Assembly: GCA_015059095.1 (NCBI GenBank) | Contig: SVBA01000009.1 | Coordinates: 3,228 to 67,227 of the forward strand | DNA length: 64,000 nucleotides | Source: Erysipelotrichaceae bacterium | GTDB lineage: Bacteria; Bacillota_I; Bacilli_A; RFN20; CAG-449 | Reading direction: 5' to 3' | Shown: piece by piece, positions 46,857 through 64,000 of the stretch | How positions within the stretch are numbered: position 1 is the first letter of the stretch | Layout: every line of letters starts with the position of its first letter | Translations under genes and position numbers: made by a program | The notes under the pieces: model-generated | The model's input: only the letters and a program-made list of their open reading frames with translations | What the model was told of the DNA's origin: nothing | Database searches by the model: none

Positions 46857-47465
46857 ATGAGATTTGATATTAATAAATTAAAATGGACTAGATTACCTAA
46901 AGAATATTCTATTAATGAGAATGAAATAGTTGTTGTTACTAATCCTCATACTGATTTATGGCAACGTACTTATTATGGATTTAGAAATGATAATGCACCT
47001 GTTTTACAAATGGAAACTAATGAAAAGTATTTTTCTTTTATTGTCAAAACTTCATTTGAAAGTAAAGTTAGATTTGATCAATGTGGTGTTTGTATTTATT
47101 TAGATAGTGAGAATTGGTTAAAAGGATCAATTGAATATGAAAATGAAAAAATACAAAGATTAGGTAGTGTAGTTACTAATTTAGGGTATTCAGATTGGGC
47201 TACTACGGATATTTCTTCTTGTGTTAAAGAAATGTGGTATCGTTTATCTAGAAGAGAAGATTCTTATTGTATTGAATGTAGTGAAGATGGTATTAGTTTT
47301 AAACAAATGAGGATATGTCATTTAGAAAAAGGAAAAGACGTTATTAAATTTGGTATATATGCTTGTTCTCCTGAAGATTCTTCTTTTAAAGCAACTTTTA
47401 CTAATTTTGAATTAAGAGAATGTGAATGGAAAGCTCATGATGGTCAACAACCTGATGTAGAATAA
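46857..47465 (+). CDS. DUF1349 (concanavalin-like, enolase-regulator-1-like) protein
   Basis: Overall length and beta-sandwich pattern fit DUF1349. Confidence 0.45.
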   Translation: MRFDINKLKWTRLPKEYSINENEIVVVTNPHTDLWQRTYYGFRNDNAPVLQMETNEKYFSFIVKTSFESKVRFDQCGVCIYLDSENWLKGSIEYENEKIQRLGSVVTNLGYSDWATTDISSCVKEMWYRLSRREDSYCIECSEDGISFKQMRICHLEKGKDVIKFGIYACSPEDSSFKATFTNFELRECEWKAHDGQQPDVE

Positions 47466-47532
47466 TAAATTTTTAACAGTAATTTAATATTTTTAGTATA
47501 TTATTGAATAAAATCAACAATGAAAGGATTGT

Positions 47533-48228
47533 ATGAAATATATTAAAAAAAGGAAAAAATGGTTTGAAAATTTAAAGAAAATTCTTAGATTGTTCATCAA
47601 AAAATCAGAATTTATTTATTTGGGTGAAAAAATAGAAGATGGTAGTATTATTATTTCTAATCATGAAGGTGCATCTTCTCCTTTAACTTTGGAATTATAT
47701 AGTGATTTTTATTTTAGATTTTGGGGAACATATGAAATGAACTCAGGATTAAAAAGTGTTTATAAATATTTAAGCGAAATATATTTCCACAAGAAAAAAC
47801 ATTGGAATATTCATTTAAGTAGAATTTTTTGTATTATTGCTGCCCCTATTGTTAATTTGTTTTATAAAGGTTTAGATTTGATATCTACTTATCCTGATGG
47901 AAGATTATTAAATACTATTAAAGAAAGTATAAAAGTATTAGAAAATAATAAAAATTTAGTGATTTATCCTGAAAATTCTAATAAAGGTTACTTTAAAGCA
48001 TTAGAAATGTTCCATCCGGGTATTTCTTTATTCTTAGAACAATGTTTAAAAAAGAATATTAATGCTAAAGTATATGTATCTTATTTAAAAAAAGAAGAAA
48101 GAAAATACATCATTGATAAACCTATTTATATTAAAGAATTATTAGATATGCGTTTATCAAGAGAAGAACTTGCTTCTTATCTTTGTGATAAATGTAATAA
48201 TTTGAGCAATATTGAGATCTCAAAATAG
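47533..48228 (+). CDS. putative acyltransferase-like protein (weak PlsC-like)
   Basis: IIISNHEGASS and a VIYPE region resemble lysophospholipid acyltransferase motifs I and III, but the canonical Asp in HX4D is absent. Confidence 0.3.
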   Translation: MKYIKKRKKWFENLKKILRLFIKKSEFIYLGEKIEDGSIIISNHEGASSPLTLELYSDFYFRFWGTYEMNSGLKSVYKYLSEIYFHKKKHWNIHLSRIFCIIAAPIVNLFYKGLDLISTYPDGRLLNTIKESIKVLENNKNLVIYPENSNKGYFKALEMFHPGISLFLEQCLKKNINAKVYVSYLKKEERKYIIDKPIYIKELLDMRLSREELASYLCDKCNNLSNIEISK

Positions 48229-48283
48229 AGATCTTTTTATTTTTCTTTAAAAAATGGGTAACCTATTTTAAAGGAGAAATTAT

Positions 48284-48718
48284 ATGATTGAAGAAGATAC
48301 AATTAAGTTATTAAGAGAATGTGATCAAGGAATTAAGATGGGTATTAGCTCTATTGATCAAGTTATTTCTTATGTAAGTTCAGAAAAAATGAAAAACGTT
48401 TTTTTAAAATCAAAAATGGAACATTCGAAAATTGAAAATGAAATAGAAGAGATGTTGTCTAGATTTCAAGATGAAGGTAAAAATCCTAATATATTTGTTC
48501 AGGGAATGTCAAAAATGAAGACAAATATTGAATTAATGATCAATGATTCAGATTATAAAATTGCTAGTATTATGGTGGATGGAACAAATATGGGAGTTAA
48601 ATCATTAAGTAGATATTTAAATCAATACAAGGCTGCAAGTGAAGAAGCAAAATACATAACTCGTAAAATAATTAAATTAGAAGAAAAATTATCAAAAGAT
48701 TTAAGAGAATTTTTATAA
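48284..48718 (+). CDS. hypothetical helical protein (DUF2383-like?)
   Basis: Alpha-helical and Lys/Glu-rich, with no catalytic motif. AGGAG RBS. Confidence 0.3.
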   Translation: MIEEDTIKLLRECDQGIKMGISSIDQVISYVSSEKMKNVFLKSKMEHSKIENEIEEMLSRFQDEGKNPNIFVQGMSKMKTNIELMINDSDYKIASIMVDGTNMGVKSLSRYLNQYKAASEEAKYITRKIIKLEEKLSKDLREFL

Positions 48719-48824
48719 TTTGAGTCGAATAAATCGAAAATCTAACATTTTTCATAATATAAGTTGTATAATTAAAGTATAAAAATAGATTGGCACATAA
48801 TAGCTAAACTGGAAGGAACAAAAT

Positions 48825-49361
48825 ATGAAAAATGTTGTGATTATTTCTTCATCACCAAGAAAAGATGGAAACACAGAAACTTTATGTAAGGAGTTTTATC
48901 GTGGAAGTGAATCGATGGGACATCATGTTGAATTAATATGTCTTAGAGATTATAATTTAAAATATTGTTTGGGATGTTATAGTTGTACTAAATTGGGTAG
49001 ATGTATACATAAAGATGGAATGGATGAAATTTCTGAAAAACTATTAAAAGCAGATGTAATAGTTTTATCAACTCCAGTATATTTTTATTCAATGTCTGGT
49101 CAATTAAAGGTATTTATTGATCGATTAGTCCCTTATTATAGTAAAATTAAGGCCGATATTTATCTAATTGGAACGATGTTTGACATTGAACAAGAAATGA
49201 TGGATTCAACTTTTGAAGCAATAAGAGGAGCGACTAGAGATTGCTTTGTTAATTGTAAAGAAAAAGGTGTCATCTATGGTTTAGGTTTATATAATAAAGA
49301 TGATGTTTTAAAAAGAGAAGACTTAAAAGCCAAAGCTTATGCGATGGGAATGAGTGTTTAA
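48825..49361 (+). CDS. iron-sulfur flavoprotein / NADPH-dependent FMN reductase-like
   Basis: Flavodoxin-like VVIISSSPRKDGNT plus a CLGCYSCTKLGRC Cys cluster. GGAAGG RBS. Confidence 0.6.
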   Translation: MKNVVIISSSPRKDGNTETLCKEFYRGSESMGHHVELICLRDYNLKYCLGCYSCTKLGRCIHKDGMDEISEKLLKADVIVLSTPVYFYSMSGQLKVFIDRLVPYYSKIKADIYLIGTMFDIEQEMMDSTFEAIRGATRDCFVNCKEKGVIYGLGLYNKDDVLKREDLKAKAYAMGMSV

Positions 49362-49367
49362 TTTAAT

Positions 49368-49395
49368 GGAGAATGAATTATTTCATTCTCTTTTT
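49368..49395 (+). terminator. rho-independent terminator
   Basis: GGAGAATGAA-TTATTT-CATTCTC followed by T5. Confidence 0.7.
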
Positions 49396-49426
49396 AAGTG
49401 TGCTAAAATTAGTTTATATTTAGGTA

Positions 49427-49885
49427 ATGATTATGAAAATAGTTAGATATGAAGAAAAACATATTCAAGATGTCGTTTCTTATGAATTAACTTTAAGAAA
49501 TGAAGAACCTGATTGGGGATGGGAAATTAATGAAGAATACATTAATAAAGTATCTTCATCTTTTTGTGATTCTAAATATAATAATGCTTTATCTTTTATT
49601 GCTTACATTGATAATAAAGTGGTAGGAAGAATTGATGCAAGTTTAATTCCTACTCATTTCGATGGAAGTATGAAAGCTTATTTAGATTGGATATGTGTAT
49701 TAAAGAGTTATCGTCATAAAGGTGTTGCTCAAGCATTAATGAAAGAATTAAGAAAAGTACTAAAAGAAGAGTATAATGTGGATACTTTAGTAGGATTAAT
49801 CGCCTCAAATGAAGAAGCACAAAGATTTTATAGATCTTTAGATAAATCTATAATTAGAGATGAAGGGATTTGGATTGATTGCTAA
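49427..49885 (+). CDS. GNAT-family N-acetyltransferase
   Basis: Acetyl-CoA motif A, RHKGVAQALMKEL. Confidence 0.75.
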   Translation: MIMKIVRYEEKHIQDVVSYELTLRNEEPDWGWEINEEYINKVSSSFCDSKYNNALSFIAYIDNKVVGRIDASLIPTHFDGSMKAYLDWICVLKSYRHKGVAQALMKELRKVLKEEYNVDTLVGLIASNEEAQRFYRSLDKSIIRDEGIWIDC

Positions 49886-50366
49886 TATGAATAAAGTTTA
49901 TTTAAAAGAACATTTAAAAAAATATCCACTAATGGATATTCAAGATATTATTAAACTCCATTTACAGGCTATATTAGGTCCTGCTCATCTTTTGCCTAGT
50001 AAAGAAAGAATTAAAGAAAATTTTATTAAAGAGTATAATGAAATTAAAGATTTAGATTATCATTATGATTTACTAGAAGATGTTAGTGAAACTTATACTA
50101 GAGTCTATTTAAAACCTTATTATGAATTAATGGGAAGTTTTGATAAATTAGTAGATGTGTTTTATTATTCAATTGATAAAGATTTAGATATTGAAGGATA
50201 TAAAAAGGTGATTAAAGGACTAATTAATGAGGAAAATAAGGAGTTTATTAGTAGATATTTAGAAAGTGACAGTGTGTTAATTAGTCATTCTAAAAAATAT
50301 AAAGATAATTATCATCCTCACTACATTGTAGTAAAGTCAATGTATATAGGATTAGCACTTAAATAG
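49860..50366 (+). CDS. hypothetical protein
   Basis: No recognisable motif. The true start may be the ATG at 49887 (MNKVYL), just after the GNAT stop. Confidence 0.35.
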   Translation: MKGFGLIANMNKVYLKEHLKKYPLMDIQDIIKLHLQAILGPAHLLPSKERIKENFIKEYNEIKDLDYHYDLLEDVSETYTRVYLKPYYELMGSFDKLVDVFYYSIDKDLDIEGYKKVIKGLINEENKEFISRYLESDSVLISHSKKYKDNYHPHYIVVKSMYIGLALK

Positions 50367-50377
50367 GAGGAAAATTT

Positions 50378-51244
50378 ATGAGTAAATCTAAGGTGTATTT
50401 TAGTAGTAAAATTACTAAAGAATCAGTATTAAATTTGTATAGAACTTTAGGAGTTGAATTAAAAGGAAATGTTGCGGTTAAAGTGCATTCGGGTGAGCCA
50501 GGAAATCAAAACTTTATTAGACCTGATTTTTGGAGTGATATGATTAATGAAGTTAATGGTACGGTAGTTGAATGTAATACAGCTTATGCAGGTAGAAGAA
50601 ATACAACTAAAGCCCATTTAGAGACTTTTAAAGAACATGGATGGAATGCTTTTAGTGTAGATTTATTGGATGCAGAAGGTCCAGATTTAGTTTTAGATAT
50701 TCCAAAAGGAAAAGTAATTAAAAAGAATTATGTTGGTAAAGATATTGTTAATTATGATTCAATGTTAGTGTTATCTCATTTTAAAGGTCATCCAATGGGT
50801 GGATATGGTGGAGCGATTAAACAACTTTCAATTGGATTAGCTTCATCTTATGGTAAAGCGTATATTCATGGAGCAGGTGATCCTAGTAAAATTTGGACTG
50901 CAGATCATGATAAGTTTTTAGAATCAATGGCAGATGCAGCGTTAAGTGTAGTTGAATATTTTAAAGGTAATATTGTCTATATTAATGTTATGAAAAATAT
51001 GTCAGTAGATTGTGATTGCTGCGCAGTTGCAGAAGATCCATGTATTAAAGATATTGGGATTTTGATTTCAACTGATCCAATTGCAATCGATCAAGCTTGT
51101 ATTGATTTAGTATATTCTTGTGATGATGAAAAGAAAAATCATTTAATTGAAAGAATTGAATCAAGAAATGGAATTCATACGATTGTTGCAAGTGCAGAAT
51201 TAGAGTTTGGTTCAAGAGATTATGAACTAATTAAAATAGATTAA
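50378..51244 (+). CDS. DUF362 domain protein (putative Fe-S binding)
   Basis: DCDCCAVAEDPC Cys cluster and overall DUF362 pattern. GGAGG RBS. Confidence 0.6.
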   Translation: MSKSKVYFSSKITKESVLNLYRTLGVELKGNVAVKVHSGEPGNQNFIRPDFWSDMINEVNGTVVECNTAYAGRRNTTKAHLETFKEHGWNAFSVDLLDAEGPDLVLDIPKGKVIKKNYVGKDIVNYDSMLVLSHFKGHPMGGYGGAIKQLSIGLASSYGKAYIHGAGDPSKIWTADHDKFLESMADAALSVVEYFKGNIVYINVMKNMSVDCDCCAVAEDPCIKDIGILISTDPIAIDQACIDLVYSCDDEKKNHLIERIESRNGIHTIVASAELEFGSRDYELIKID

Positions 51245-51256
51245 TAGAGGTCAAAA

Positions 51257-52069
51257 ATGGAATTTTGGGATGTATATGATGAATTAGGAAATAAATTAAA
51301 TAAGATTCATTCTCGAGGCGAAAAACTTTTAGATGGTGAATATCATTTAGTGTGTGAATGTTTAGTAAAACATGTTGATGGAACTTTCTTATTAATGAAA
51401 AGGCATCCTTCAAAGAAAGTTTATCCATTATGTTATGAGGCGACTGCAGGAGGTTCTGCTTTAGCTAATGAAACACCTTTAGATTGTGTAAAAAGAGAAT
51501 TAAAAGAAGAGACTGGAATTGATTGTGATAATTTTATCCAAGTTAATTATTCTATTTCTAAAGAAAGACATGCTATATATTATTCCTATGTTTGTGTAGT
51601 TGATTGTTTGAAAGATAGTGTTATTCTTCAAGAAGGGGAAACTATCGATTATAAATGGGTGGATGTAGACGAATTTAAAGATTATATCTCTTCTACTGAA
51701 TCAGTGAAAACCCAAGTGGAAAGATATAAAAAATATTATGATACTTTTGAAATAGGATATAATTTTATGGTTATTATTGACCGTCCTCTTGGTAGTATTC
51801 ATCCTAAGCATAAAAATATTGTTTATCCTGTAAACTATGGATATATTCCAAATAGAATTGGTGGAGATAATGAAGAGCAAGATGCATATGTTTTAGCTTT
51901 AGAAGATATACCATTAAAATCTTATATTGGTAGATTAATTGGTGTAATAATTAGAATTGATGATAATGAAACTAAATGGATTATTTCTAATAGGGATTTT
52001 AGTGAAAAAGAGATATTAGAAAAGGTTTCTTTCCAAGAAAAATACTTTAAAAGTGTATTATTTAAATAG
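51257..52069 (+). CDS. NUDIX hydrolase fused to a C-terminal inorganic-pyrophosphatase-like domain
   Basis: NUDIX box GGSALANETPLDCVKRELKEETGI in the N-terminal half. C-terminal half: YPVNYGYIPNRIGGDNEEQDAYVL...IGVIIRIDDNETKWII parallels family I PPase YPANYGYI...DGDPVDVLV...VGVLKMTDE. Confidence 0.65.
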   Translation: MEFWDVYDELGNKLNKIHSRGEKLLDGEYHLVCECLVKHVDGTFLLMKRHPSKKVYPLCYEATAGGSALANETPLDCVKRELKEETGIDCDNFIQVNYSISKERHAIYYSYVCVVDCLKDSVILQEGETIDYKWVDVDEFKDYISSTESVKTQVERYKKYYDTFEIGYNFMVIIDRPLGSIHPKHKNIVYPVNYGYIPNRIGGDNEEQDAYVLALEDIPLKSYIGRLIGVIIRIDDNETKWIISNRDFSEKEILEKVSFQEKYFKSVLFK

Positions 52070-52080
52070 GAGAAAAAAAT

Positions 52081-52608
52081 ATGAAAAAATTATTAATTAT
52101 TGTAGATTATCAATATGATTTTGTTAACGGAAGTTTAGGCTTTGAAGGAGCAGAAAAATTAATTCCAGTGATCAAAGAAAAAATTGAAAATTATTTAAAA
52201 GAAAATCAAGATATAATTTATACTTTAGATACCCATGAAGAAGATTATTTGTCTTCAACTATGGAAGGTAAATTATTACCTGTAGCACATTGTTTAAGAT
52301 GTAGTAAGGGGTGGAAAGTAGTAGATGAAGTTGATTATTTAGATAGAGCGATTAAGGTATTTGAAAAACCTACATTTCCATCTTTAGAATTAGCAAATTA
52401 TTTAAAAGATAAAGAGTATGATGAGGTTGAATTATGTGGGCTTGTTTCTAATATTTGCGTATTGAGTAATGCAGTAATGGTAAAATCTAGTTTACCTAAT
52501 GCTAGTATTATTGTAGATGCTAAAGCGACGGATTCTTTCAATAAAGATCTTCATGAAAAGTGTTTAGACATTTTAGAAGGTCTCCATATTCAAGTGATTA
52601 ATAGATAA
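52081..52608 (+). CDS. isochorismatase-family cysteine hydrolase, nicotinamidase (PncA)-like
   Basis: LLIIVDYQYDFVNGSL (Asp), K, and the nucleophile CGLVSNICV. Confidence 0.65.
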   Translation: MKKLLIIVDYQYDFVNGSLGFEGAEKLIPVIKEKIENYLKENQDIIYTLDTHEEDYLSSTMEGKLLPVAHCLRCSKGWKVVDEVDYLDRAIKVFEKPTFPSLELANYLKDKEYDEVELCGLVSNICVLSNAVMVKSSLPNASIIVDAKATDSFNKDLHEKCLDILEGLHIQVINR

Positions 52609-56986: not shown

Positions 56987-58432
56987 ATGGAAAAAGAAGT
57001 GAATTATATCCAAAAAACTTCTGGATTAAAGAAGATTGATTATTTTGGATATGCTATGGGTGATGTTGCTTCCTTATTAGTTTTTGGTTTAGTAAATAGT
57101 ATTCTTCAAATTTATTATACTGACTATTTAGGTTTAAGCCTTGTTAGCGTAATGATTTTATTTACTGTATCTAGAATTTGGGATGCATGTAATGACCCAT
57201 TGATGGGTAGAATTATTGATACTACTAAATGTAAACCAGGTAGTAGATATCGTAGATGGTTAGTTTTATTATCTGTACCTCTTGCTATCGCTACTGTATT
57301 AATGTTTGTTGACGTTAGATCTTTAGGTCAAACTGGTGCATTTATTTTTGCTACTATCACTTATATTTTATTCTGTACTTTATATACAGGTACAAATATT
57401 CCTTATGGTTCAATGGCTGCAGTCATTACTTCAGATGAAAAAGAAAGAAATACTTTATCAGTATTTAGATCAATGGGTTCTACTTTTGGTGCATTCCCAG
57501 CTATGGCTCTAGCAGGTATGTGGATTGTATCAAATCCAGATGGAACTAAAACTTTTAAATATAACGTATTATTAATTGGGGTAATTATTATTGCTGTTTT
57601 ATCAATTGTTGGTTATTTTATTTGTTACAAATTCTCTAAAGAAAGAATTGTTACTGTTCCAGAAAAAAAGAAGGTAAAAGGTTATACTTTTAAAACAATT
57701 AAAGGTTTATTATCTACAAAGTCATTCTTAGTTGTTTCTTTAGCTGGCATGTTATTCTTAGCAGGTCAAATGTACCAACAATCATATAACCAATACTTAT
57801 TTACTTATGTATTTGATGCTCCTGGATTAATGAGTTTACCAACTATTATGCAATATTTACCGGTAGCAATTGTTATGTTCTTTTCAAATAAATTATGTAA
57901 GAAATTTGGTAGAAAAGAAATTTGTGCAGTAGGTATGTTACTTGCAGGTTTATCTTTCTTATCAATTGCGTTCTTAAAAGTTACTAATCCTTATATTTAC
58001 TTAGGTGTATGTTTAGTTTCAGGTATTGGTAATTCATTTATCTTCTTAATGGTTTGGGCATTAGTAAATGATGCTATCGATGATTATATGGTTAAATCAG
58101 GTAGAAGAGATGATGGTACAGCATATTCATTATTTACATTCTGTAGACAAATTGGTCAAACAGTCGCTGCAATTTTAGTAAATGCTGGTTTAATGTCATT
58201 TAATTATGATAAAGATTTAATTGGTAATTCTCCAGAAATGTTAGAAAGTATGTATCTTCAATCTTGTTTAATTCCTGCAATCTTATTTATTTTAATCTTC
58301 GTATTATTATGGTTCTTCTATCCACTTAATAAGAAGAGATTACAAGAACTTCAAGTTGAAAAAGAAGCAGTATTAGAAAAAATTGCTCTTGAAAATGAAG
58401 AAAATAAAGAACAAGAAGTAGTTTCTGAATAA
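56987..58432 (+). CDS. MFS transporter, GPH family (glycoside-pentoside-hexuronide:cation symporter, MelB-like)
   Basis: YFGYAMGD and DPLMGRIIDTT signature of GPH symporters. Twelve TM segments. AAGGAG RBS. Confidence 0.8.
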   Translation: MEKEVNYIQKTSGLKKIDYFGYAMGDVASLLVFGLVNSILQIYYTDYLGLSLVSVMILFTVSRIWDACNDPLMGRIIDTTKCKPGSRYRRWLVLLSVPLAIATVLMFVDVRSLGQTGAFIFATITYILFCTLYTGTNIPYGSMAAVITSDEKERNTLSVFRSMGSTFGAFPAMALAGMWIVSNPDGTKTFKYNVLLIGVIIIAVLSIVGYFICYKFSKERIVTVPEKKKVKGYTFKTIKGLLSTKSFLVVSLAGMLFLAGQMYQQSYNQYLFTYVFDAPGLMSLPTIMQYLPVAIVMFFSNKLCKKFGRKEICAVGMLLAGLSFLSIAFLKVTNPYIYLGVCLVSGIGNSFIFLMVWALVNDAIDDYMVKSGRRDDGTAYSLFTFCRQIGQTVAAILVNAGLMSFNYDKDLIGNSPEMLESMYLQSCLIPAILFILIFVLLWFFYPLNKKRLQELQVEKEAVLEKIALENEENKEQEVVSE

Positions 58433-58534
58433 TTAGTAACTAAGCATCAAGTTTATCTTGGTGCTTTTTAATTGAAAAATTAAATAAAAAAATTGGATTA
58501 TTAATAACTAGGAGTTATAATATAATCACCATTT

Positions 58535-58611
58535 GGTCTATTGGAGAAGCGGCTTAACTCGACGCCCTCTCAAGGCGTTATTCACGGGTTCGAACCCCGT
58601 ATAGATCACCA
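58535..58611 (+). tRNA. tRNA with CUC anticodon (tRNA-Glu-like), CCA encoded; marks the left edge of the island
   Basis: Hand-folded cloverleaf: acceptor GGTCTAT/ATAGATC, D-loop containing GG, anticodon stem ACGCC/GGCGT with loop CTCTCAA, T-arm ACGGG-TTCGAAC-CCCGT, discriminator A, then CCA. Confidence 0.55.
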
Positions 58612-58620
58612 GAATAGTAG

Positions 58621-58690
58621 AACAGGTTTGATACAATGCTATCAAGCCTTTTTTTGTGCTTTTATAAGGGTTCAAATCTCACCCGTAAGG
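58621..58690 (+). repeat. repeat module copy 1: TTGATAC-type terminator hairpin + T-run + tRNA T-arm-like segment
   Basis: GGTTTGATAcaatgcTATCAAGCC, then T7, then GCTTTTATAAGGGTTCAAATCTCACCCGTA. The last part resembles the 3' half (T-arm) of the adjacent tRNA (GGGTTCGAACCCCGTA). Confidence 0.5.
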
Positions 58691-58754
58691 AATTACTTAA
58701 ATGATTATTAATGATTTAAGTGTATAAATTGTTATTTTTAGTGTGTCTATTCGA

Positions 58755-58870
58755 TAAACGATTTAATAGAGTGGTTTCAAAAATTTAAGGACGGTTTCAT
58801 TATTAAACGATTATGTTAAGGTGGTTTCAAAAATAGTTCAAAGGTAGTTTCACACTATTAAACGATTATA
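58755..58870 (+). repeat. iteron array L: about 4 tandem 31-bp units of GGTGGTTTCA-N-TATTAAACGATTAT
   Basis: AAACGATT occurs 3 times and G(G/T)(T/A)GTTTCA occurs 4 times at about 31-bp spacing. Confidence 0.6.
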
Positions 58871-58929
58871 CAAATTCATAGTAAATACAAAGAAAATATG
58901 ATATAATAAATCAAAGGAAGTGGCTATAT

Positions 58930-59730
58930 ATGTTTGAGAGTTTGAAAATAATAAGTGAGTGTAAAAGAACACTTAAAAATCATAATATTAAATATAATGA
59001 AGACTTTAAAATATATAAGAAATTTGGATTAATTCATTGTCAAGTTGACGATTGGAGAGGTCCTGTTGAAGTTGATGGTTTTCCAGTTTTGACAATTAAA
59101 TCAGCCACTTTATTACTTATTGAATCTTGTGCATTTGATCATTATTTGTTGGAGGAAAAAAATAAAAGAGAACAGCTAATTAAAGAATATCCTTTAGGAT
59201 ATGGAGAATATGAAACGAGAAAATATCTTTTTGAAAATATACTAAAAGTCATAAAAGGTTATGATGAAAAACACTATGTTAGTTTAATTAATAAATATAC
59301 AAAGTATTTAAATATGAATAGGAAAACAAAGCAAAGATGGTCATACAATAAATCAACAGAAAAGTTTGAAATTTATCCTATTGCTTCATATTCAGCGGTG
59401 ATTATATCTAAAGCAATAAATACTATTAGAATTTATAATCAAGATCCTTGTGGTGGAAGATTAGATGATAATATTTATAAATTAATATCTGAAAATTTTG
59501 AAGATGGATTATTTAAATTTTCTTTTACTAATAACGGAGAAGACAGATTTTATTTAGAAATTTATAATCCGCAATATGCAGATGGTTCAGACAATTACAT
59601 TATGATTTATAAGGCTGATAAAGTAGTATGGTCGTATATGCCATTTGAAAATAGCGAGTCAAAACAAGAAAGAATATTTATTTTTGATGGAACAAAATTA
59701 AATATTGTTGGTGAAATTAATTTTAAATAA
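58930..59730 (+). CDS. hypothetical protein (266 aa), island gene
   Basis: Soluble protein with no motif I can recognise. AAGGAAG RBS. It is the first gene after iteron array L. Confidence 0.4.
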   Translation: MFESLKIISECKRTLKNHNIKYNEDFKIYKKFGLIHCQVDDWRGPVEVDGFPVLTIKSATLLLIESCAFDHYLLEEKNKREQLIKEYPLGYGEYETRKYLFENILKVIKGYDEKHYVSLINKYTKYLNMNRKTKQRWSYNKSTEKFEIYPIASYSAVIISKAINTIRIYNQDPCGGRLDDNIYKLISENFEDGLFKFSFTNNGEDRFYLEIYNPQYADGSDNYIMIYKADKVVWSYMPFENSESKQERIFIFDGTKLNIVGEINFK

Positions 59731-59770
59731 AGGATTAAAAAAATATCAACGAAAGGATAAAATTATAATT

Positions 59771-60256
59771 ATGATCAATAAGAAAGGTATAATTGGTGAA
59801 TTTATGGAAGAAAATGTAACATTGATTGGCTATAATTCTAAAAAACAGCCTTATATATTTTTAGGTGCAGCTATCTTGGTATTTATTATTGCTATACTGT
59901 GTATATTTTTTGCTGAAGGAAATAAAAAATTTGCATCAATTGCATTGTTTCTTATAGGGATAGGACTCATGATTGGCTTTTTTTATTTGTTAAAATTACC
60001 TCATATAGGTATTAAAGTAATAGATGACAAATACTTATACTTTTATGATAAAGATAATGTGAAAATTATTGATATTAGTAATATTGAAAAAGTAAATTAT
60101 TGGCCAGCAAATTATGGCCTTAAGATTGTTCTTTTCACTTCAAAAGGTAGTGAATATTTTACTTATTTATTATCTAATATCAAAGATGTAAAAAAACATT
60201 TATTATATTTATTTGAAAAAGAAAATATTAAGGTAATAAATAGGTATAGTAAGTAG
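59771..60256 (+). CDS. small membrane protein (2 TM + cytoplasmic domain), island gene
   Basis: The track ORF 59705..60256 begins with TTG. The first ATG (MINKKG) is at 59771. The protein has two TM helices and a roughly 100-aa C-terminal domain. Confidence 0.4.
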   Translation: MINKKGIIGEFMEENVTLIGYNSKKQPYIFLGAAILVFIIAILCIFFAEGNKKFASIALFLIGIGLMIGFFYLLKLPHIGIKVIDDKYLYFYDKDNVKIIDISNIEKVNYWPANYGLKIVLFTSKGSEYFTYLLSNIKDVKKHLLYLFEKENIKVINRYSK

Positions 60257-60411
60257 TATTGAATTATTCTCGATATTAAGTATTGGTGAAAAAATTGCAC
60301 TTGAAGTATTATAGAAAAGAAATGATGGTCTTAGTAAAAATGGCAAAATATTTTCTTTAAAGATGAAAGTATGTATTATAAAAAATTAAGTCCTATGAAA
60401 TAGGATTAAAA

Positions 60412-60585
60412 ATGAAATTAATAAGAGAAGCTAATGATGTAAGTAAAACAGAATTAGCCATTAGATTAAAAGTCAATCGAAAGACAGTTATATTATTAGA
60501 AAAAGGTGATAGGTTACCTTCATTAGAATATATCTATAACTTTTGTAAAATGTTTGATGTTTTGATTGAATTAATGTTAAATTAA
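60412..60585 (+). CDS. small XRE-family HTH regulator (57 aa)
   Basis: Hand translation gives MKLIREANDVSKTELAIRLKVNRKTVILLEKGDRLPSLEYIYNFCKMFDVLIELMLN, a Cro/C1-type HTH. Missing from the track because it is under 60 aa. A perfect palindrome TCCTATgaaATAGGA lies at 60391-60405, overlapping its RBS. Confidence 0.55.
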   Translation: MKLIREANDVSKTELAIRLKVNRKTVILLEKGDRLPSLEYIYNFCKMFDVLIELMLN

Positions 60586-60600
60586 AGGGGGTTATTTTCA

Positions 60601-61494
60601 ATGAAGTTAAATATTGTTGTTTTTATTTTATTTGTAATAATTTATGTTTTGACTATAGTTTTAACAATATTTAAAATCAAAGATATACACAAGAATCCTG
60701 AAAAATATGAGCATGAAGATTTAATTAATGAAACAAATAGAAAATATGCTAACAAATGGGATAAATTTTCTAGTTTTTTTAAATCATTATCTCATCAATA
60801 TGGAATGATAAATATGTTATTATGTTTTGTCTTTGTTGCTTTAGGAACAATATTTATCTTTTCCATAAATAAAGCGTATAGTCAAGGTGAAGGATATATT
60901 ACCTTAGGAACGCAACTAATTGGTTCAATTGGCCTATTATTTTTAGGGATTCCATTATGTATGATAATTATTCCATTGGCAATCAAAAAACCATTCTTTG
61001 TTGTTACAACGTTAGATATGTTTAATACAGACCATAGACCAAAAATATATTTTAAAGGATATATATTATTTTTAGTATTTTTTATAATAACATTTCCATT
61101 TATAACTCTGTCTTGTAACAATTACGTTTATTATGATTCAAATGGCATTTATTCAAATAGATATTTTCAGATTGAAGAAAAGTTTACTTCATATGAAGAA
61201 ATAACAAAGATTGAAATTTATTTAACCTATAAAGAAGAAAAAATATCTGGAGTACATTATGATGTGTATTTAAATGACGGAAGATTTAATATTAATTCAC
61301 CTAGCGGTAAAAAGAAGATATTTGCTGATAATACCTTTACAATACATAATTATGTTATAAATAAAAGTAATTGTGAATTTATTATTACTCCATTAACTGA
61401 AGATGATATTAATTTTTTAGTGGAAAACTATACTAACGATGATTATCAAAAAATTTTAGAAGTCTTTAATGCTGATCAATTAAAGGAGAATTAA
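60601..61494 (+). CDS. polytopic membrane protein (297 aa), island gene
   Basis: AAGGGGG RBS 8 nt upstream and at least five hydrophobic helices. Immediately downstream of the small XRE gene. Confidence 0.4.
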   Translation: MKLNIVVFILFVIIYVLTIVLTIFKIKDIHKNPEKYEHEDLINETNRKYANKWDKFSSFFKSLSHQYGMINMLLCFVFVALGTIFIFSINKAYSQGEGYITLGTQLIGSIGLLFLGIPLCMIIIPLAIKKPFFVVTTLDMFNTDHRPKIYFKGYILFLVFFIITFPFITLSCNNYVYYDSNGIYSNRYFQIEEKFTSYEEITKIEIYLTYKEEKISGVHYDVYLNDGRFNINSPSGKKKIFADNTFTIHNYVINKSNCEFIITPLTEDDINFLVENYTNDDYQKILEVFNADQLKEN

Positions 61495-61495
61495 A

Positions 61496-61984
61496 ATGAA
61501 AATAGGAATTATTAAGGAAAAGAAAGTTGGGTTACTAATATCTACTATTATTTGTCTTATATGTTGTATTTTTCCATTTTTTACTAAATTAGAGTTTATT
61601 GACAAAATATTTATATTCGTTATGCTGTTAATAGCATATTTAATTATATTATTATGTTTTCTAATATCGATGGAATGGTACATAATAGACATAGAATCTA
61701 TTACAGTTAAAAATGTTTTTGGAACAGTAAATAAAGTTTATTATAAAGATGTTAAATATTCTTATGTTAAACGATTACCTGTTTTTACTAGAGATAAAGG
61801 AATCTCTTGCTTATTATTTAATGATGGTAGAAAAGAATGCAGTTTCTTCACAGGTAATAATATAGATAATCATAAAAAATATATTATTAGAATTCCATAT
61901 ACTCAAGAAGTTGTGGATTATTTCAAAAAAAATAATATTGAGTTAAATAATAATTCGATTTTTAAAACTATAATAAATGAATAA
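61496..61984 (+). CDS. small membrane protein (2 TM + cytoplasmic domain), island gene
   Basis: AAGGAG RBS. Same architecture as 59771..60256, with a weak shared motif after TM2 (IIDIESITV versus IIDISNIEKV). Confidence 0.4.
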   Translation: MKIGIIKEKKVGLLISTIICLICCIFPFFTKLEFIDKIFIFVMLLIAYLIILLCFLISMEWYIIDIESITVKNVFGTVNKVYYKDVKYSYVKRLPVFTRDKGISCLLFNDGRKECSFFTGNNIDNHKKYIIRIPYTQEVVDYFKKNNIELNNNSIFKTIINE

Positions 61985-61985
61985 A

Positions 61986-62140
61986 ACAAACGATTTGCTA
62001 GGTGGTTTCATTATTAAACGATTTAGGCAGGTAGTTTCAAATTATTAAACGATTACAACTGATTTTCAGTAATTATTAAACGATATGGTCAGGTGGTTTC
62101 AAATTATTAAACGATTATGGCAACTATTAAACGATTTATT
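61986..62140 (+). repeat. iteron array R: about 4.5 tandem 31-bp units GGTGGTTTCA(A/T)ATTATTAAACGATT
   Basis: TATTAAACGAT appears 5 times at spacings of about 31, 31, 31 and 17 bp. Same unit and same orientation as array L. Confidence 0.65.
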
Positions 62141-62257
62141 AAAATTGTATTAATAGTGTCATACCTTGCCATTTAAGAAGATTAGATTTGATACAATATA
62201 TCAAGCCTTTTTTATTTGCTTTTATAGAGGTTCAAGTTCCACCCGTCTTGTTAAAAG
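62141..62257 (+). repeat. repeat module copy 2 (extended): AAAATTGT...TTGCCATTTAA + TTGATAC hairpin + T-run + GGTTCAAGTTCCACCCGT
   Basis: Aligns with copy 1 (hairpin, T-run, T-arm-like part) and over a longer stretch with copy 3. Confidence 0.5.
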
Positions 62258-62423
62258 ATGATATTGTTTCATTTTTATAACTGAAGTTTAGTGACTGATT
62301 TAATTAAGGAACTGCAGAGATTTTATAACTTTATAACGATTTGATAACAATTTAACGATTACCTAACTTTTTAAGACATCCTCCTAGATTGCACTAAGTT
62401 ATGGTGTTGCACCGCATTCAAGT

Positions 62424-62600
62424 ACCTATGGGCGGTAATAGATAGCTGTACGCAGATTATGGCAATTGATCAGGTGAGACTCCTACCCAACGAAAGTGGA
62501 GTCTTTTTATTATCTCGCATTGATGGATATTTTAATTATTTTTTAATATAATTTATATAGTGAAAATCGACTGATAAATTAGAATTTGACGGTCAAATCC
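62424..62600 (+). repeat. about 180-bp cassette A: conserved 60-nt segment + terminator hairpin + extended -10 promoter
   Basis: ACCTATGGGCGGTAATAGATAGCTGTACGCAGATTATGGCA..., then GAGACTCC...GGAGTC followed by T5, then TTGATG...TAATATAAT. About 88% identical to cassette B at 63475. Confidence 0.55.
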
Positions 62601-62691
62601 ACTCTACCACTGGTTAATTTCCTCACTAAACCAATGGTAGGTGTATTTTATAGAAAATAATTATTACACTAGATACGAAAGGAGATAACTT

Positions 62692-63294
62692 ATGAATCAA
62701 ATTAAAATAGGAAGATTTATTGCTGAATGTAGAAAAAAAGAAAACTTAACCCAAATGCAGTTAGCTGAAAAGTTAAACATCACAGACAAAGCAGTATCTA
62801 AGTGGGAAAGAGGTATAGCAATGCCTGATGCTTCTTTAATGCTTGATCTATGTAGTATTCTTGGTATTAGTGTAAATGAATTATTAAGTGGGGAGAAAAT
62901 TGATGTGGAAAATAATAATAACGAAAAGCTTTTGCTTGATATGGCAAAAGAATTAGAAAACAAAAACAAAACTATTTGGTCATCTATGTGGGCACTTATG
63001 ACTGTAAGTTTGATTACTTTAATTGCAGGTATTTTTATTGCTGCATTTTTGATACCAGAAGGTATCTGGCAACTTGTAACAATTCTTGGTGTTTGTGTTG
63101 TGTTTTTAATACCTTGCATCTACGCTGTAAAATTAGAAGTTAGTGTGGGAGCATATAAATGTAAAAACTGTGGTTATGAAATTGTTCCTACATATAAAGA
63201 AGCAATGATGTCGATGCATAGAGGAACAACTCGTCATTTATTGTGCCCTAAATGCAACAAACGTACTTGGTGTAAAAAAGTAATAAGGAAATAA
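62692..63294 (+). CDS. XRE-family HTH regulator fused to 2 TM helices and a C-terminal zinc-ribbon
   Basis: N-terminal HTH_3 (RFIAECRKKENLTQMQLAEKLNITDKAVSKWERG), two hydrophobic helices, then CKNCGYEIVP...CPKCNKRTWC. AAGGAG RBS. Confidence 0.55.
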   Translation: MNQIKIGRFIAECRKKENLTQMQLAEKLNITDKAVSKWERGIAMPDASLMLDLCSILGISVNELLSGEKIDVENNNNEKLLLDMAKELENKNKTIWSSMWALMTVSLITLIAGIFIAAFLIPEGIWQLVTILGVCVVFLIPCIYAVKLEVSVGAYKCKNCGYEIVPTYKEAMMSMHRGTTRHLLCPKCNKRTWCKKVIRK

Positions 63295-63359
63295 GATTTC
63301 AAATTGAGAGAGCGTCAAATTCCTATTTATCGTTTAGAAATAGGGGTATGCAATTGTAT

Positions 63360-63455
63360 TAAAATTGTGTAACGTTGCCATTTAAAATTACCAATCTTGA
63401 TACAATAAAAAGTATCAAGATTTTTTATTTTTATGGTGTTCAAGTTCAACTCCTT
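63360..63455 (+). repeat. repeat module copy 3: AAAATTGTGTAACGTTGCCATTTAA + perfect 11-bp TTGATAC hairpin + T-run + GGTGTTCAAGTTCAACTCC
   Basis: AATCTTGATACaataaaaaGTATCAAGATT followed by T6. Aligns with copies 1 and 2. Confidence 0.5.
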
Positions 63456-63474
63456 GATATACACAGCATTTAAA

Positions 63475-63640
63475 TACCTATGGACGGTAATAGATAGCTG
63501 TACGCAGATTATGGCAGTTAATCAAGTGAGGCTCCTACTCAATGAAAGTGGAGTCTTTTTATTATCTCGCATTGGTGGACATTTTAGTTGTTTTTTGATA
63601 TAATTTATATGGTGAAAATTGACTGATAAATTAGAATTTG
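63475..63640 (+). repeat. about 170-bp cassette B (near-identical to cassette A)
   Basis: ACCTATGGACGGTAATAGATAGCTGTACGCAGATTATGGCA..., then GAGGCTCC...GGAGTC followed by T5, then TTGGTG...TGATATAAT (extended -10). It ends 10 nt before the next ATG. Confidence 0.55.
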
Positions 63641-63650
63641 TAGGTGTGTT

Positions 63651-64000
63651 TATGAATAAAGAGTGGTCAGAATTAAATAAAGAAGTTAAGATTTTATTGA
63701 ATAAAAAAACAACCTTTAAAGATGGAATTAATAAACTCATTGCATTAAGAAGTTTACTTTTTAATGAATGGAAAAAAGCTATGAGTGATTTATCTATTGA
63801 AGATTATTCGAATCAACCATTTTTTAATAGAGATGGATACGAATCTAAAACGATCGCATATTCTATTTTTCACGTGTTTAGAATTGAAGATATTGTATTA
63901 AATACATTGATAAATAATAGACAACAAATTTTTATTCGAGATGATTATCAATATAAGATGAATTCATCTATTATTACAACGGGAAATGAATTAAAAGGCG
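63651..64000 (+). CDS. DinB_2/DUF664-like protein (3'-truncated at window edge)
   Basis: Frame is open from ATG 63651 to the window end. The segment IAYSIFHVFRIEDIVLNTLI resembles the DinB_2 helical bundle. Confidence 0.4.

Follow-up and report, generated by a model that had tools for sequence, protein, structure and literature searches.

The SCC elements of staphylococci (SCCmec, CcrA/CcrB) lie as tandem, same-orientation cassettes at one kind of chromosomal site. Many of their units lack a recombinase and are presumably moved in trans; they also have a co-transcribed serine recombinase pair and resistance or defence cargo, and in all these respects the locus described here resembles them. 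To our knowledge, SCC ends do not carry phased multi-copy box arrays, unlike the cassette ends reported below. Large serine recombinases use simple sites of ~40–50 bp and their directionality factors act via protein contacts, and serine integrases are valued for genome engineering because their sites are simple. We know of no canonical large serine recombinase that needs accessory DNA sites, and a role for repeat arrays in recombination would therefore be unusual. The ssrA islands of Dehalococcoides are also tandem and lie downstream of the tmRNA gene, with a DsiA/DsiB (CcrB-like) serine recombinase pair in an integrase module; some units lack this module and have been read as cis-mobilisable elements (PMC3146451). 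Their insertion is in the T-loop of one target gene, with a 20-bp direct repeat of ssrA, and no repeat arrays were reported (PMC3146451).

We analysed a window of 64,000 nt from an Erysipelotrichaceae bacterium (GCA_015059095.1, contig SVBA01000009.1, positions 3,228–67,227, forward strand). The repeat array under study, array R, belongs to a recombinase-less cassette of 3,560 bp (about 3.6 kb), here called C1 (58612–62171), and is the right-hand one of its two subterminal arrays. C1 starts directly after the CCA of a tRNA-Glu gene (58609–58611, the left junction), ends ...TTGCCA, and fits exactly between the tRNA and the next cassette, C2. The features of C1 are as follows.

58535–58611, forward strand: tRNA-Glu(CTC) gene, the integration target (ARAGORN; Rfam tRNA, 56 bits)
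58612–58656, forward strand: C1 left end, P'-type arm, with a 12-nt spacer, hairpin AGGTTTGATACAATGCTATCAAGCCT and a T run (terminator scan)
58663–58686, forward strand: A-type box of the left arm, TATAAGGGTTCAAATCTCACCCGT (direct repeats D5/D6; copies at 62223–62246 and 63430–63450)
58754–58867, forward strand: array L, three B and four A boxes in the orientation of array R, ending ~35 bp upstream of the cassette promoter
58875–58907, forward strand: predicted cassette promoter, TTCATA ... TGATATAAT, extended -10 (promoter scan, consensus match only)
58930–61984, forward strand: C1 cargo, five genes (ORFs, Pfam, PHROGs)
58930–59730, forward strand: gene 1, 266 aa
59771–60256, forward strand: gene 2, 161-aa membrane protein
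60412–60585, forward strand: gene 3, 57-aa HTH_3 protein (Pfam)
60601–61494, forward strand: gene 4, 297-aa membrane protein
61496–61984, forward strand: gene 5, 162-aa membrane protein
61986–62136, forward strand: array R, a degenerate B box, then four A+B units (one A decayed), then a lone terminal B box
62142–62171, forward strand: C1 right end, P-type arm, type 1, AAATTGTATTAATAGTGTCATACCTTGCCA, with the junction after the CCA at 62169–62171

Array R spans 61986–62136, and within it Tandem Repeats Finder called a period of 31 with 4.3 copies over 61988–62116 and a score of 120, which bears out the original prediction of a tandem 31-bp repeat in a single orientation. The array begins 2 bp past the stop codon of the last C1 gene, and its unit is bipartite, with a 10-bp A box, a gap of 3–5 bp and a near-palindromic 10-bp B box (TAAACGATTA). 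Six B boxes (TTAAACGATT) lie at 61986 (degenerate, ACAAACGATT), 62014, 62045, 62076, 62107 and 62127, giving spacings of 28, 31, 31, 31 and 20 bp; the last of these had been given as 17 bp and measures 20–21 bp. Of the four A boxes (GGTGGTTTCA), three are at 62001, 62030 and 62092 and the fourth, near 62061, is degenerate (CTGATTTTCA). In array L, the B boxes lie at 58754, 58803 and 58858, and the A boxes at 58770, 58790, 58820 and 58843. Over the whole window ATTAAACGAT occurs nine times against 0.30 expected, a number (nine or more) reached in 0 of 100 shuffles, and seven of the nine copies are within arrays L and R, every one on the forward strand.

In other genomes and metagenomes we found 77 distinct A+B units over 31 loci, all of which keep both boxes at a spacing of 28–32 bp while the linkers vary, so this is not the generic AT-rich simple repeat that the original prediction had named as its possible undoing. 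The A+B unit and its two fixed contexts are conserved across the 31 loci, in several families of Bacillota. Our first genome-wide pattern, two B boxes 15–27 bp apart, returned mostly unrelated Bacteroidota and other matches lacking an A box, which were filtered out, and a viral match to the A+B pattern was rejected as coding sequence of a phi29-like polymerase. The conserved boxes and their spacing have the appearance of phased protein-binding sites, and to that extent support the earlier suggestion that proteins could bind the array on one DNA face.

Clusters of phased direct repeats at ~31 bp look like plasmid iterons and parC/parS arrays, and a replicative unit had indeed been proposed. If the arrays served a small replicative unit as its replication iterons or partition centromere, we would expect them to bracket a gene block as direct phased repeats of about 17–35 bp; they do so (28–32 bp in the 77 units), although this is not specific to iterons. 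This explanation is nonetheless largely refuted and in our view very improbable. Pfam and PHROGs found no Rep, partition gene or recombinase among the five genes of C1, and no Rep, ParA/ParM or ParB/ParR was seen in the array-flanked cassettes examined (the cargo of at least 30 others was inspected). A DNA similarity search of the block gave no match among 72,556 plasmids (PLSDB; megablast and blastn) and one weak, irrelevant match only among INPHARED phages. Furthermore, cassettes can be as small as 1.2 kb, and the arrays lie in chromosomal islands at fixed distances from CCA junctions.

The left end of C1 carries a hairpin that is predicted to serve as the terminator for tRNA-Glu, and within it TTGATACAAT, which is the right-end motif inverted. 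The 12-nt stretch that follows the CCA of tRNA-Glu (GAATAGTAGAAC) differs from the consensus of the family, and C1 may therefore be fixed or decayed at this gene. The direct repeat D5/D6 recurs at spacings of 3560 and 1208 bp, and its A-type box has the consensus TAGGGGTTCGAGTCTCCTACGT in other loci, with TAGGGGT in common with the A2, A3 and A4 boxes. We noted that TATAAGGGTTCAAATCTCACCCGT resembles a tRNA T-arm. A role as T-arm mimic or target decoy was considered and set aside since the sequence is better read as a further A-type box (TAGGGGT...), though its likeness to GGTTCRA remains. The predicted promoter sequence also follows the left array in three other loci (L139, L061 and L208). 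At the other end, the type-1 right arm also terminates cassettes in eight loci (L005, L042, L100, L061, L164, L166, L171 and L190), beyond which the sequences diverge. No transposase or 5-bp target duplication was found at C1 and arrays L and R are direct rather than inverted, so these are not Tn7-like or Mu-like ends.

Relative to the C1 junctions, array R is 35 bp inside and array L 142 bp inside. The original prediction had the arrays as the edges of a discrete mobile block, and had suggested looking for a deletion or circle of about 3.3 kb produced by recombination between them. It is outside the arrays, at the CCA, that the conserved junctions lie, and the unit is the 3,560-bp C1; horizontal mobility of the block, on the other hand, is upheld by the recurrence of its core, and of the neighbouring cassettes, at other tRNA genes. 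The core of C1 (the 266-aa and 161-aa genes and both arrays) lies after tRNA-Gly in a related MAG (L061), and C2 together with the following cassette C3 is 99.8% identical in L203, where it starts at the CCA (62169 onward) but has tRNA-Leu upstream. The features of these neighbouring cassettes are as follows.

62172–63380, forward strand: cassette C2, 1,209 bp
62172–62246, forward strand: C2 left arm
about 62339–62370, forward strand: two B-like boxes of C2
62410–62593, forward strand: 184-nt repeat with promoter in C2
62573–62588 and 63310–63331: C2 gene-level repeats IRL and IRR
62692–63294, forward strand: C2 HTH-TM-zinc-ribbon gene
63342–63352, forward strand: single A2 box of C2, AGGGGTATGCA
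63353–63380, forward strand: C2 right arm, type 2, ATTGTATTAAAATTGTGTAACGTTGCCA
63381–64000, forward strand: start of cassette C3, which runs beyond the window

In the parent contig (L001) the island reaches about window-equivalent 66471 and holds at least four cassettes in one orientation, C1 being the first. The cassettes have a common left end (CCA, ~12 nt, a hairpin with TTGATACAAT, an A-type box, the left array and a promoter) and a common right end (the right array, then ATTGTATYAA...(G)CCA). They carry genes for defence and resistance and no recombinase, and one nucleotidyltransferase cassette is 99.4% identical among several genomes of these gut Bacillota. The island also has a repeat at the level of the gene, IRL/IRR, on either side of single genes.

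C1 gene sets are reshuffled in four other loci (L061, L136, L160 and L208). It is conceivable that the arrays have no dedicated binder and are portable homology or slippage-prone repeats for cargo exchange by homologous or illegitimate recombination, hitch-hiking with the ends. Consistent with this, a 1.7-kb segment (HTH57, 297 aa and 162 aa) that distinguishes the window from L061 is inserted exactly within a B box (between gaattaTT and AAACGAT), the last B box of L027 and L190 directly adjoins their resolvase and methyltransferase cargo, some inter-locus homology breakpoints fall within A or B boxes, and unit number ranges from 2 to 5 among relatives. However, conserved boxes with free linkers and a spacing near whole helical turns across families are unexpected for neutral homology, and breakpoints are commoner at the IRL/IRR repeats and CCA junctions than in the arrays, and we regard this explanation as unlikely. 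The small resolvase that abuts the left array in L027 and L190 was also considered as a mobiliser; its relatives at 87–90% identity adjoin methyltransferase genes without arrays and it pairs with an NPPY methyltransferase in L190, and we therefore assigned it to the cargo. IS66 transposases by two cassette ends (L069 and L139) were judged incidental insertions.

The junction module was found directly after the CCA of ten tRNA or tmRNA genes: tRNA-Glu, Gly, Thr, Leu(CAA) twice, Leu(TAG), His, Ser and tmRNA twice. The hosts are Anaeroplasmataceae, Acholeplasmatales, Erysipelotrichaceae and other Bacillota, and the module also follows pseudo-CCA cassette ends. The tRNA-His gene in the window (45487) has its own terminator and no junction module. 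Left, right and internal junctions have only CCA or CA in common, often CCATT; the target genes are intact to their own CCA and no tRNA segment is carried by the element. A nucleotidyltransferase cassette adjoining tRNA-His in L139, where a perfect 50-bp direct repeat begins at the CCA, is an exception to this short identity that fits re-integration at one site. Breaks in contigs at 7 nt past the CCA of tRNA-Glu were considered as strain polymorphism and are ambiguous, because a multi-copy module would break assemblies anyway. Rfam gave no family at gathering score or at E<=1, either in 58400–64000 or after the recombinase genes.

All ten internal junctions have a motif pair, ATTGTATYAA at -28 to -19 and TTGATACAAT at +17 to +26, with its symmetry centre on CA. 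Together the two end motifs would make up an inverted repeat of ~54 bp with its centre at the CA of CCA, as in an att site of large-serine-recombinase type. The dyad is short and single-junction dyad scores are weak, being reached by 4–78 of 200 shuffles. The hairpin is itself palindromic, so that the inverted motif is also a direct repeat of the hairpin 3' arm, which confounds the dyad reading.

The ends of C1 are homologous to ends that lie beside phage recombinases. In prophages of the Ca. Heliusvirales type, two large serine recombinases lie directly upstream of the right-end motif TTGTATYAAAAT...CA, after which the junction falls. The motif is always preceded by 3–5 phased short boxes whose sequence is lineage-specific, with a spacing of about 21 or 30 bp as against about 31 bp in the C1 arrays. 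Large serine recombinases (Resolvase, Recombinase and Zn_ribbon_recom domains) were found beside one end in L207/L208, L211–L218, L224–L230, PV036447 and at least 15 IMG/VR loci, and the conserved module upstream of the right end comprises an HTH/zinc-ribbon protein, an 89-aa protein and the two recombinases. At least 15 IMG/VR relatives have 3–5 boxes directly upstream of TTGTATYAAAAT..CCA at the junction, in hosts with a GC content of 0.27–0.57. Within one phage lineage an identical right end is joined to flanking sequences of four different kinds, all of them terminator hairpins. PV036447, a complete phage record, begins CACCA, followed after the junction by 12 nt and a hairpin, and has three B-like boxes (GTTAGAACGATTAC) in its left arm and three A4 boxes and one inverted B-like box in its right arm. 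The ends of the Oscillospiraceae Heliusvirales record PV036425 are cut too near the recombinase gene to judge. We found no earlier description of such arrays beside the serine-integrase genes of gut prophages. No homologue of the recombinases or of the HTH/zinc-ribbon protein was found within the window, and IMG/VR yielded no phage whose arrays are of the A1+B type; the right arm of L265 comes closest, and this locus has GGTTTCA boxes but lacks B boxes. Genomes that carry A1+B cassettes include JAZNJG01, JBAYTA01 and SVBD01.

The predicted recognition helix of the HTH/zinc-ribbon protein (xRSS/TV/IS) is common to the three lineages with the box GGTGTACGCA, whose proteins are only 40% identical overall. 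Whole-protein co-variation with box type was negative (L248 versus L216, 40%), and the pattern is confined to the predicted helix. L305 and L226 have one box in common and different recognition helices.

The 3' ends of tRNA and tmRNA genes are the classic targets of tyrosine integrases, and direct-repeat arm sites and Xis sites flank the attP cores of such systems. The arrays could be arm-type sites of a tyrosine integrase (heterobivalent, as in lambda or P4) or its Xis sites, with the serine recombinases as bystanders. In addition to the target, this reading can point to one phage lineage (L211–L218) in which the HTH-recombinase module is preceded by a gene for a tyrosine recombinase, often a truncated one. 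The other lineages lack this gene and most of its copies are truncated, whereas the serine pair is invariably beside the arm. Furthermore, only CCA or CA is in common and no tRNA 3' segment is carried, which fits a 2-bp serine crossover better than a tyrosine overlap of at least 7 bp. We consider a tyrosine integrase quite improbable here.

The main rival, which the original prediction had raised in the form of a single regulator with two operator clusters, is that the arrays are operator or insulator clusters. A phage or host regulator on the B (and A) boxes would control the cassette promoter and, between right and left arrays, would stop read-through or form a DNA loop; the arrays would be regulatory rather than recombination parts that travel with the cassettes. 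A purely regulatory role would account just as well for the position of array L, which ends ~35 bp ahead of a conserved promoter with an extended -10, and the B box, a 10-bp near-palindrome, is typical of operators for dimeric HTH proteins. Moreover, the three B-like boxes of PV036447 precede the promoter that serves a 71-aa HTH gene of XRE type, and XRE-type HTH genes are frequent cargo (60412 and 62692 in the window; L055, L057, L100 and L190). However, right arrays sit past stop codons and ahead of terminators, with no promoter there to control, and the phage boxes directly abut the recombination arm regardless of nearby cargo or promoter. Many array-flanked cassettes also lack a regulator (L139, L113/L141), and box sequence diversifies with the lineage of the recombinase module. 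On balance we think a purely regulatory role somewhat unlikely.

The structural placement of the arrays is well supported. We give about an even chance to a reading in which they serve as accessory sites for protein binding, set in the att arms of cassettes that are mobilised by serine recombinases and target tRNA 3' ends, their function being judged from sequence. In each of the two att arms an accessory protein would occupy the phased sites, which lie on one face of the DNA. The leading candidate is the HTH/zinc-ribbon protein (phrog_2308) encoded beside the recombinases, and the bound protein might shape or gate the synapse (integration versus excision) or couple recombination to expression of the adjacent genes. 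C1-like cassettes would be mobilised in trans by the recombinase pair and accumulate at tRNA and tmRNA 3' ends as SCC does at rlmH. For C1 the expected circle junction is ...GTGTCATACCTTGCCA joined to GAATAGTAGAACAGGTTTGATAC, and the expected empty site is tRNA-Glu ...GATCACCA joined to TTTAAGAAGATTAGATTTGATAC. A right arm ATTGTATTAATAGTGTCGTACCTTGCCA preceded by GGTGGTTTCA boxes would mark a cognate element of the A1+B type.

A broader proposal is tentative, and we think it possible but doubtful. Gut-phage large serine recombinase pairs, a widespread family, would integrate at the universal CCA of practically all tRNA and tmRNA genes. In contrast to all serine integrases characterised so far, they would use lineage-specific phased box arrays in both att arms that are read by a dedicated HTH/zinc-ribbon protein to build or gate the synapse; the same arms flanking enzyme-less cassettes would amount to a reservoir of defence and resistance genes that is integron-like and serviced by phages. 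If true, arm-type accessory arrays with a DNA-binding partner would be a new layer of control for serine integrases and a possible route to programmable directionality, and a recombinase landing after the CCA of many tRNA genes would have a near-universal, harmless landing site. It would also explain how little-studied gut Bacillota, among them Anaeroplasmataceae, Acholeplasmatales and Erysipelotrichaceae, acquire and swap genes for defence, restriction-modification, toxins and drug modification with neither plasmids nor integrons. The descriptive part alone makes the arrays a practical marker for locating these cassettes.

Several known systems share parts of this organisation. Like plasmid iterons and centromeres, the arrays are clustered direct repeats 20–31 bp apart in helical phase and are presumed protein-binding sites, but they are chromosomal, in fixed relation to att junctions, and have no Rep/Par and no plasmid homology. 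Integron cassettes are likewise small accessory genes in one orientation, promoter-less or with a single promoter, in varied order and context; here, in contrast, IntI is lacking, there is no imperfect palindrome of the attC type, junctions coincide with the CCA ends of tRNA genes and the head of the array of cassettes is a tRNA gene. An integron was also sought and rejected in the window: the ORF by tRNA-His (45615–46739) has no integrase domain, 46.8–52.6 kb has no junction motifs and the island has no tyrosine recombinase. In tycheposons and CIME/accretion islands cargo modules, some without an integrase, also pile up in tandem near tRNA genes, in different hosts; their att repeats are reportedly a duplicated part of the tRNA gene, and we know of no phased arrays described for them. 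The closest functional likeness is to the attP arms of tyrosine integrases (lambda P/P', X1–X2; the Xis sites of mycobacteriophage L5), which have phased direct repeats on both sides of a short core, beside the integrase gene and linked to tRNA, whereas the enzyme here is a large serine recombinase pair with no conserved tyrosine integrase. SCC targets the 3' end of rlmH, compared with the CCA end of many tRNA and tmRNA genes here, and differs also in that the recombinase pair here is carried by siphovirus-type prophages. Bounded by att-type sequences of autonomous elements and with no recombinase of its own, C1 falls within the definition of a cis-mobilisable element, its mobility read from sequence. 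The Dehalococcoides ssrA islands are alike in their tandem units, their serine pair and their module-less units; in the cassettes described here, however, insertion is after the CCA, with only CA or CCA in common, and at least ten tRNA and tmRNA genes serve as targets.

Direct reading of positions 61986-62140 bore out the original prediction's description of the sequence, apart from its final spacing of 17 bp, which is 20 bp in array R. Tandem Repeats Finder returned 4.3 copies with a period of 31 at 61988-62116, and the 10-mer ATTAAACGAT was observed nine times in the 64-kb window against 0.30 expected, with 7/9 copies lying within array R and its left counterpart, array L. The array unit is bipartite and consists of an A box, GGTGGTTTCA, followed after a gap of 3-5 bp by a B box, TTAAACGATT, which is itself embedded in the near-palindrome TAAACGATTA.

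Features of the island in the window
58535-58611: tRNA-Glu(CTC), with the island starting downstream
58612-62171: cassette C1, 3,560 bp
58754-58867: array L, A and B boxes as in array R, identical orientation
61986 (degenerate), 62014, 62045, 62076, 62107, 62127: B-box starts of array R
62001, 62030, ~62061 (decayed), 62092: A-box starts of array R
62172-63380: cassette C2, 1,209 bp

A module with a recurring order begins at 58612, 62172 and 63381, and two further times in the parent contig. Its left part comprises ~12 nt, a hairpin (AGGTTTGATACAAT..TATCAAGCC) with a T run, a T-arm-like box and, where present, B/A units; a promoter, genes, again B/A units where present, and finally AAATTGTATTAA...TTGCCA make up the remainder. 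Because this order recurs downstream of tRNA-Glu(CTC), the island consists of four or more cassettes arrayed in tandem and in one orientation, and a blind repeat search gave spacings of 3560 and 1208-1209 bp, agreeing with the sizes of C1 and C2. At the other tRNA gene of the window, tRNA-His, the junction module is absent and the gene has a terminator of its own. Downstream of it, nine small accessory genes lie in a row on one strand (46857-52608; including DUF1349, FMN reductase, GNAT, DUF362, NUDIX and isochorismatase), and no junction motifs were found in this run.

The window (GC ~27%) lies within a 79-kb contig of JGI metagenome 3300022401 that carries ordinary chromosomal genes, including RNase J, BipA, peptidases and an MFS transporter. 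Between arrays L and R are five genes, encoding a 266-aa protein, three membrane proteins and a 57-aa HTH protein; no Rep, Par, integrase or transposase gene is among them, and searches of PLSDB and INPHARED with this region found no relatives. With Rep/Par genes and plasmid relatives both missing, iterons or centromeres are very unlikely. The original reading, iterons of a replicative unit, is only partly right, but it led to a real feature.

The module starts immediately 3' of the CCA of ten different genes: tRNA-Glu(CTC), Gly(GCC), Thr(GGT), Leu(CAA) twice, Leu(TAG), His(GTG), Ser(GGA) and tmRNA twice. It is also found after the pseudo ends of preceding cassettes (...TACCTTGCCA or ...AACGTTGCCA). 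Four comparisons fix the junction at CCA. A locus on another contig, L203, matches the window at 99.8% identity between 62169 (CCA) and 63720, and upstream of CCA has a tRNA-Leu in an ArgRS/glycosyltransferase neighbourhood. In the MAG locus L061, the C1 core, made up of the 266-aa and 161-aa genes and both arrays, is placed after tRNA-Gly, with identity to C1 from the hairpin up to TTGCCA and then a different terminator. A cassette with a 260-aa nucleotidyltransferase is identical in three genomes through ...GTCGTACCTTGCCA and divergent directly beyond, and in L139, beside tRNA-His, this cassette lies between perfect 50-bp direct repeats that begin at CCA. In a Bacillales MAG (L042), host sequence is directly repeated over 430 bp at 87-91% identity (3497-3926 and 5259-5690) on either side of the nucleotidyltransferase cassette, its right array and right arm included; this arrangement resembles Campbell-type insertion of a circle carrying picked-up flanking DNA. 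IS66-family transposase genes lie just past cassette right ends at two unrelated loci (L069 318-2752, L139 10475-11290).

Cargo across the family includes GmrSD-like, AIPR and HipA-like proteins, Dcm and Dam methylases, HsdM, an NPPY methyltransferase with a small resolvase, GNAT, glyoxalase, AAA kinase, nucleotidyltransferase, ChrA, MATE and numerous XRE-type membrane regulators; an integrase was found in none of the cassettes examined. The 200-aa small serine recombinase paired with the NPPY methyltransferase occurs in >8,000 clusters at ~88% identity or above. In two lineages (L027 7510-8000; L190 3381-6612) its 3' end runs into the final unit of a left array; close relatives elsewhere are without arrays. 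A second system of repeats operates at the level of single genes: GATAAATTAGAATTTG stands directly ahead of each RBS and an inverted copy, CAAATTCCTATTTATC, beyond the last stop (window 62573-62588, 63316-63331 and 63625-63640; parent contig L001 15369, 15896, 16360 and 16753). For the 260-aa nucleotidyltransferase gene, 99.4% identity spans exactly the first to the second such repeat in several genomes whose outer arms differ, which suggests that single-gene cassettes may be nested within att-level cassettes. A 184-nt repeat, 90% identical between 62410-62593 and 63462-63645, precedes two cassette genes. Within it, a terminator-like hairpin (GAGACTCC...GGAGTC and a T run) is followed by promoter-like TTGATG...TATAAT; the repeat has no Rfam match at E<=1 and could be a leader or attenuator.

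Scanning one genome per species, plus metagenomes, for the A+B pattern recovered the unit as short arrays of 2-5 units in MAGs of Anaeroplasmataceae, Acholeplasmatales, Erysipelotrichaceae and unclassified Bacilli, with a few contigs binned elsewhere. The unit always occupied one of two contexts, before the promoter at the left end or before the right end. Among 77 distinct units from 31 loci, the spacing was 28-32 bp (mode 30-31), and the boxes were conserved with freely variable linkers. In the array of L048, GGGGTATGCA (A2) replaces the A1 box, and this A2 box is the single terminal box of window cassettes C2 and C3. Since a chance match, encoding RGGFTWLNDR, exists inside a phi29-like DNA polymerase gene (L179, IMG/VR 2974611801_000001), a lone match to the unit counts only when it has array context.

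C1-type cassettes combine different gene sets between strains (L061, L136, L160, L208). Compared with L061, a 97%-identical MAG, the window has an additional 1.7-kb segment (60257-61995; the 57-aa HTH and two membrane proteins) with both ends inside a B box, at gaattaTT and AAACGATT; L136 and L160 have other combinations of the genes of this region. Breakpoints in the B box agree with the idea that the arrays are neutral "portable homology", but that idea does not fit the pattern of array conservation. A purely regulatory role would agree with the position of the left arrays and with the palindromic B box, yet the right arrays match it poorly.

Scanning IMG/VR with the module hairpin led to L207, where a tandem pair of large serine recombinases (437 and 526 aa; Resolvase, Recombinase and Zn_ribbon_recom domains) lie directly upstream of four AGGGGTGCGTA boxes, then ATTGTATCAAAATAGG...CACA at the junction and the hairpin module. 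In the encoding contigs, the pair forms the last genes of a siphovirus-type prophage with the order tail genes, holin, morons, HTH/zinc-ribbon protein (127-132 aa; phrog_2308, annotated unknown function), 89-aa protein, LSR1 and LSR2, and a C1-like cassette with A1+B arrays comes next after the LSR1/LSR2 end. Relatives of this prophage keep the right end unchanged with different boxes, and in the 86% lineage an identical right end is attached to four different flanks, every one a terminator hairpin. The nearest GenBank phages are Ca. Heliusvirales, whose describing paper makes no mention of integrases or att sites. In the complete record PV036447.1 (Anaeroplasmataceae phage NatCom_34063), the sequence starts with CACCA, the junction and TTAGAGTACATTAG, followed by the hairpin, TTTTTAGGGGT and three B-like GTTAGAACGATTAC boxes upstream of a promoter and small XRE gene; its right end has LSR2, three AGGGGTGTCG boxes, one inverted B-like box and CTTGTATTAAAATAG...ACA.

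An LSR2 profile matched 80 loci in IMG/VR, one of which, L233, comes from the same metagenome as the window. At least 15 LSR2 loci with sufficient downstream sequence have 3-5 short boxes, spaced about 10, 21 or 30 bp, directly ahead of TTGTATYAAAAT...(G)CCA and the junction. Hosts with a GC content as high as 50-57% keep this arrangement too, and each lineage has box sequences of its own. L265, with GGTTTCA/TGAAACC boxes and a right arm ending ...ATTGTCGTACGAAGCCA, comes closest to the type-1 arm of the window. In L265 (5320-5730; host GC ~50%), the flank downstream of the phage right end is a tandem repeat of ~130-bp units, each ending ...GGCACCA with one common terminator, giving several attB-like copies in series. 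A conserved non-coding element of ~100 nt, with a terminator at its end and many invariant columns, lies between LSR2 and the box array/cargo slot in three phage lineages (L208 11680-11775; L216 4590-4680; L227 ~9400-9530) and has no Rfam match.

The arrays are conserved, phased, subterminal parts of both arms of elements whose junction is at CCA, and in autonomous relatives a serine recombinase pair adjoins the right arm. ATTGTATYAA (-28..-19) and TTGATACAAT (+17..+26) would be inverted copies of each other with the CA of CCA as symmetry centre, making a putative ~54-bp site of the large-serine-recombinase kind, although single junctions support it only modestly and the symmetry of the hairpin itself is a confounder. 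A 2-bp crossover would be consistent with the very short sequence common to the junctions. C1 may be a cis-mobilisable unit, or else a remnant of a prophage end that is serviced in trans, and the arrays would be accessory sites for protein binding by which the synapse is shaped or gated. We favour this predicted role because the arrays go with the arm regardless of cargo or host, hold whole-turn spacing, diversify by lineage and are present on both arms. Box arrays of this kind resemble the arm/Xis architecture of tyrosine integrases. Arm sites for such an enzyme are unlikely because the gene is limited to one lineage and mostly truncated.

For accessory sites, the candidate reader would be the HTH/zinc-ribbon protein. 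Its whole-protein identity shows no correspondence with box type. The predicted recognition helix is common to three lineages with the box GGTGTACGCA (SRSSVST / SRSTVSS / PRSSIST), PSAVR is common to L208 and L226, whose boxes are similar, and L305 is a counter-example, so that the pattern of predicted helices is only suggestive of a link between protein and boxes.

To our knowledge, phased box arrays in both arms are not part of the serine-integrase paradigm, and the array feature is real and apparently undescribed. Among the closest known systems are SCC elements with CcrAB, which share a serine recombinase pair and tandem accretion of cassettes, some of them enzyme-less. Also among the closest are the Dehalococcoides ssrA islands, where DsiA/DsiB carry out the tandem accretion and some cassettes are again enzyme-less (PMC3146451). 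In contrast to both, the target here is the position after the CCA of many tRNA/tmRNA genes, the recombinases are prophage-borne, and both arms have phased, lineage-specific box arrays.
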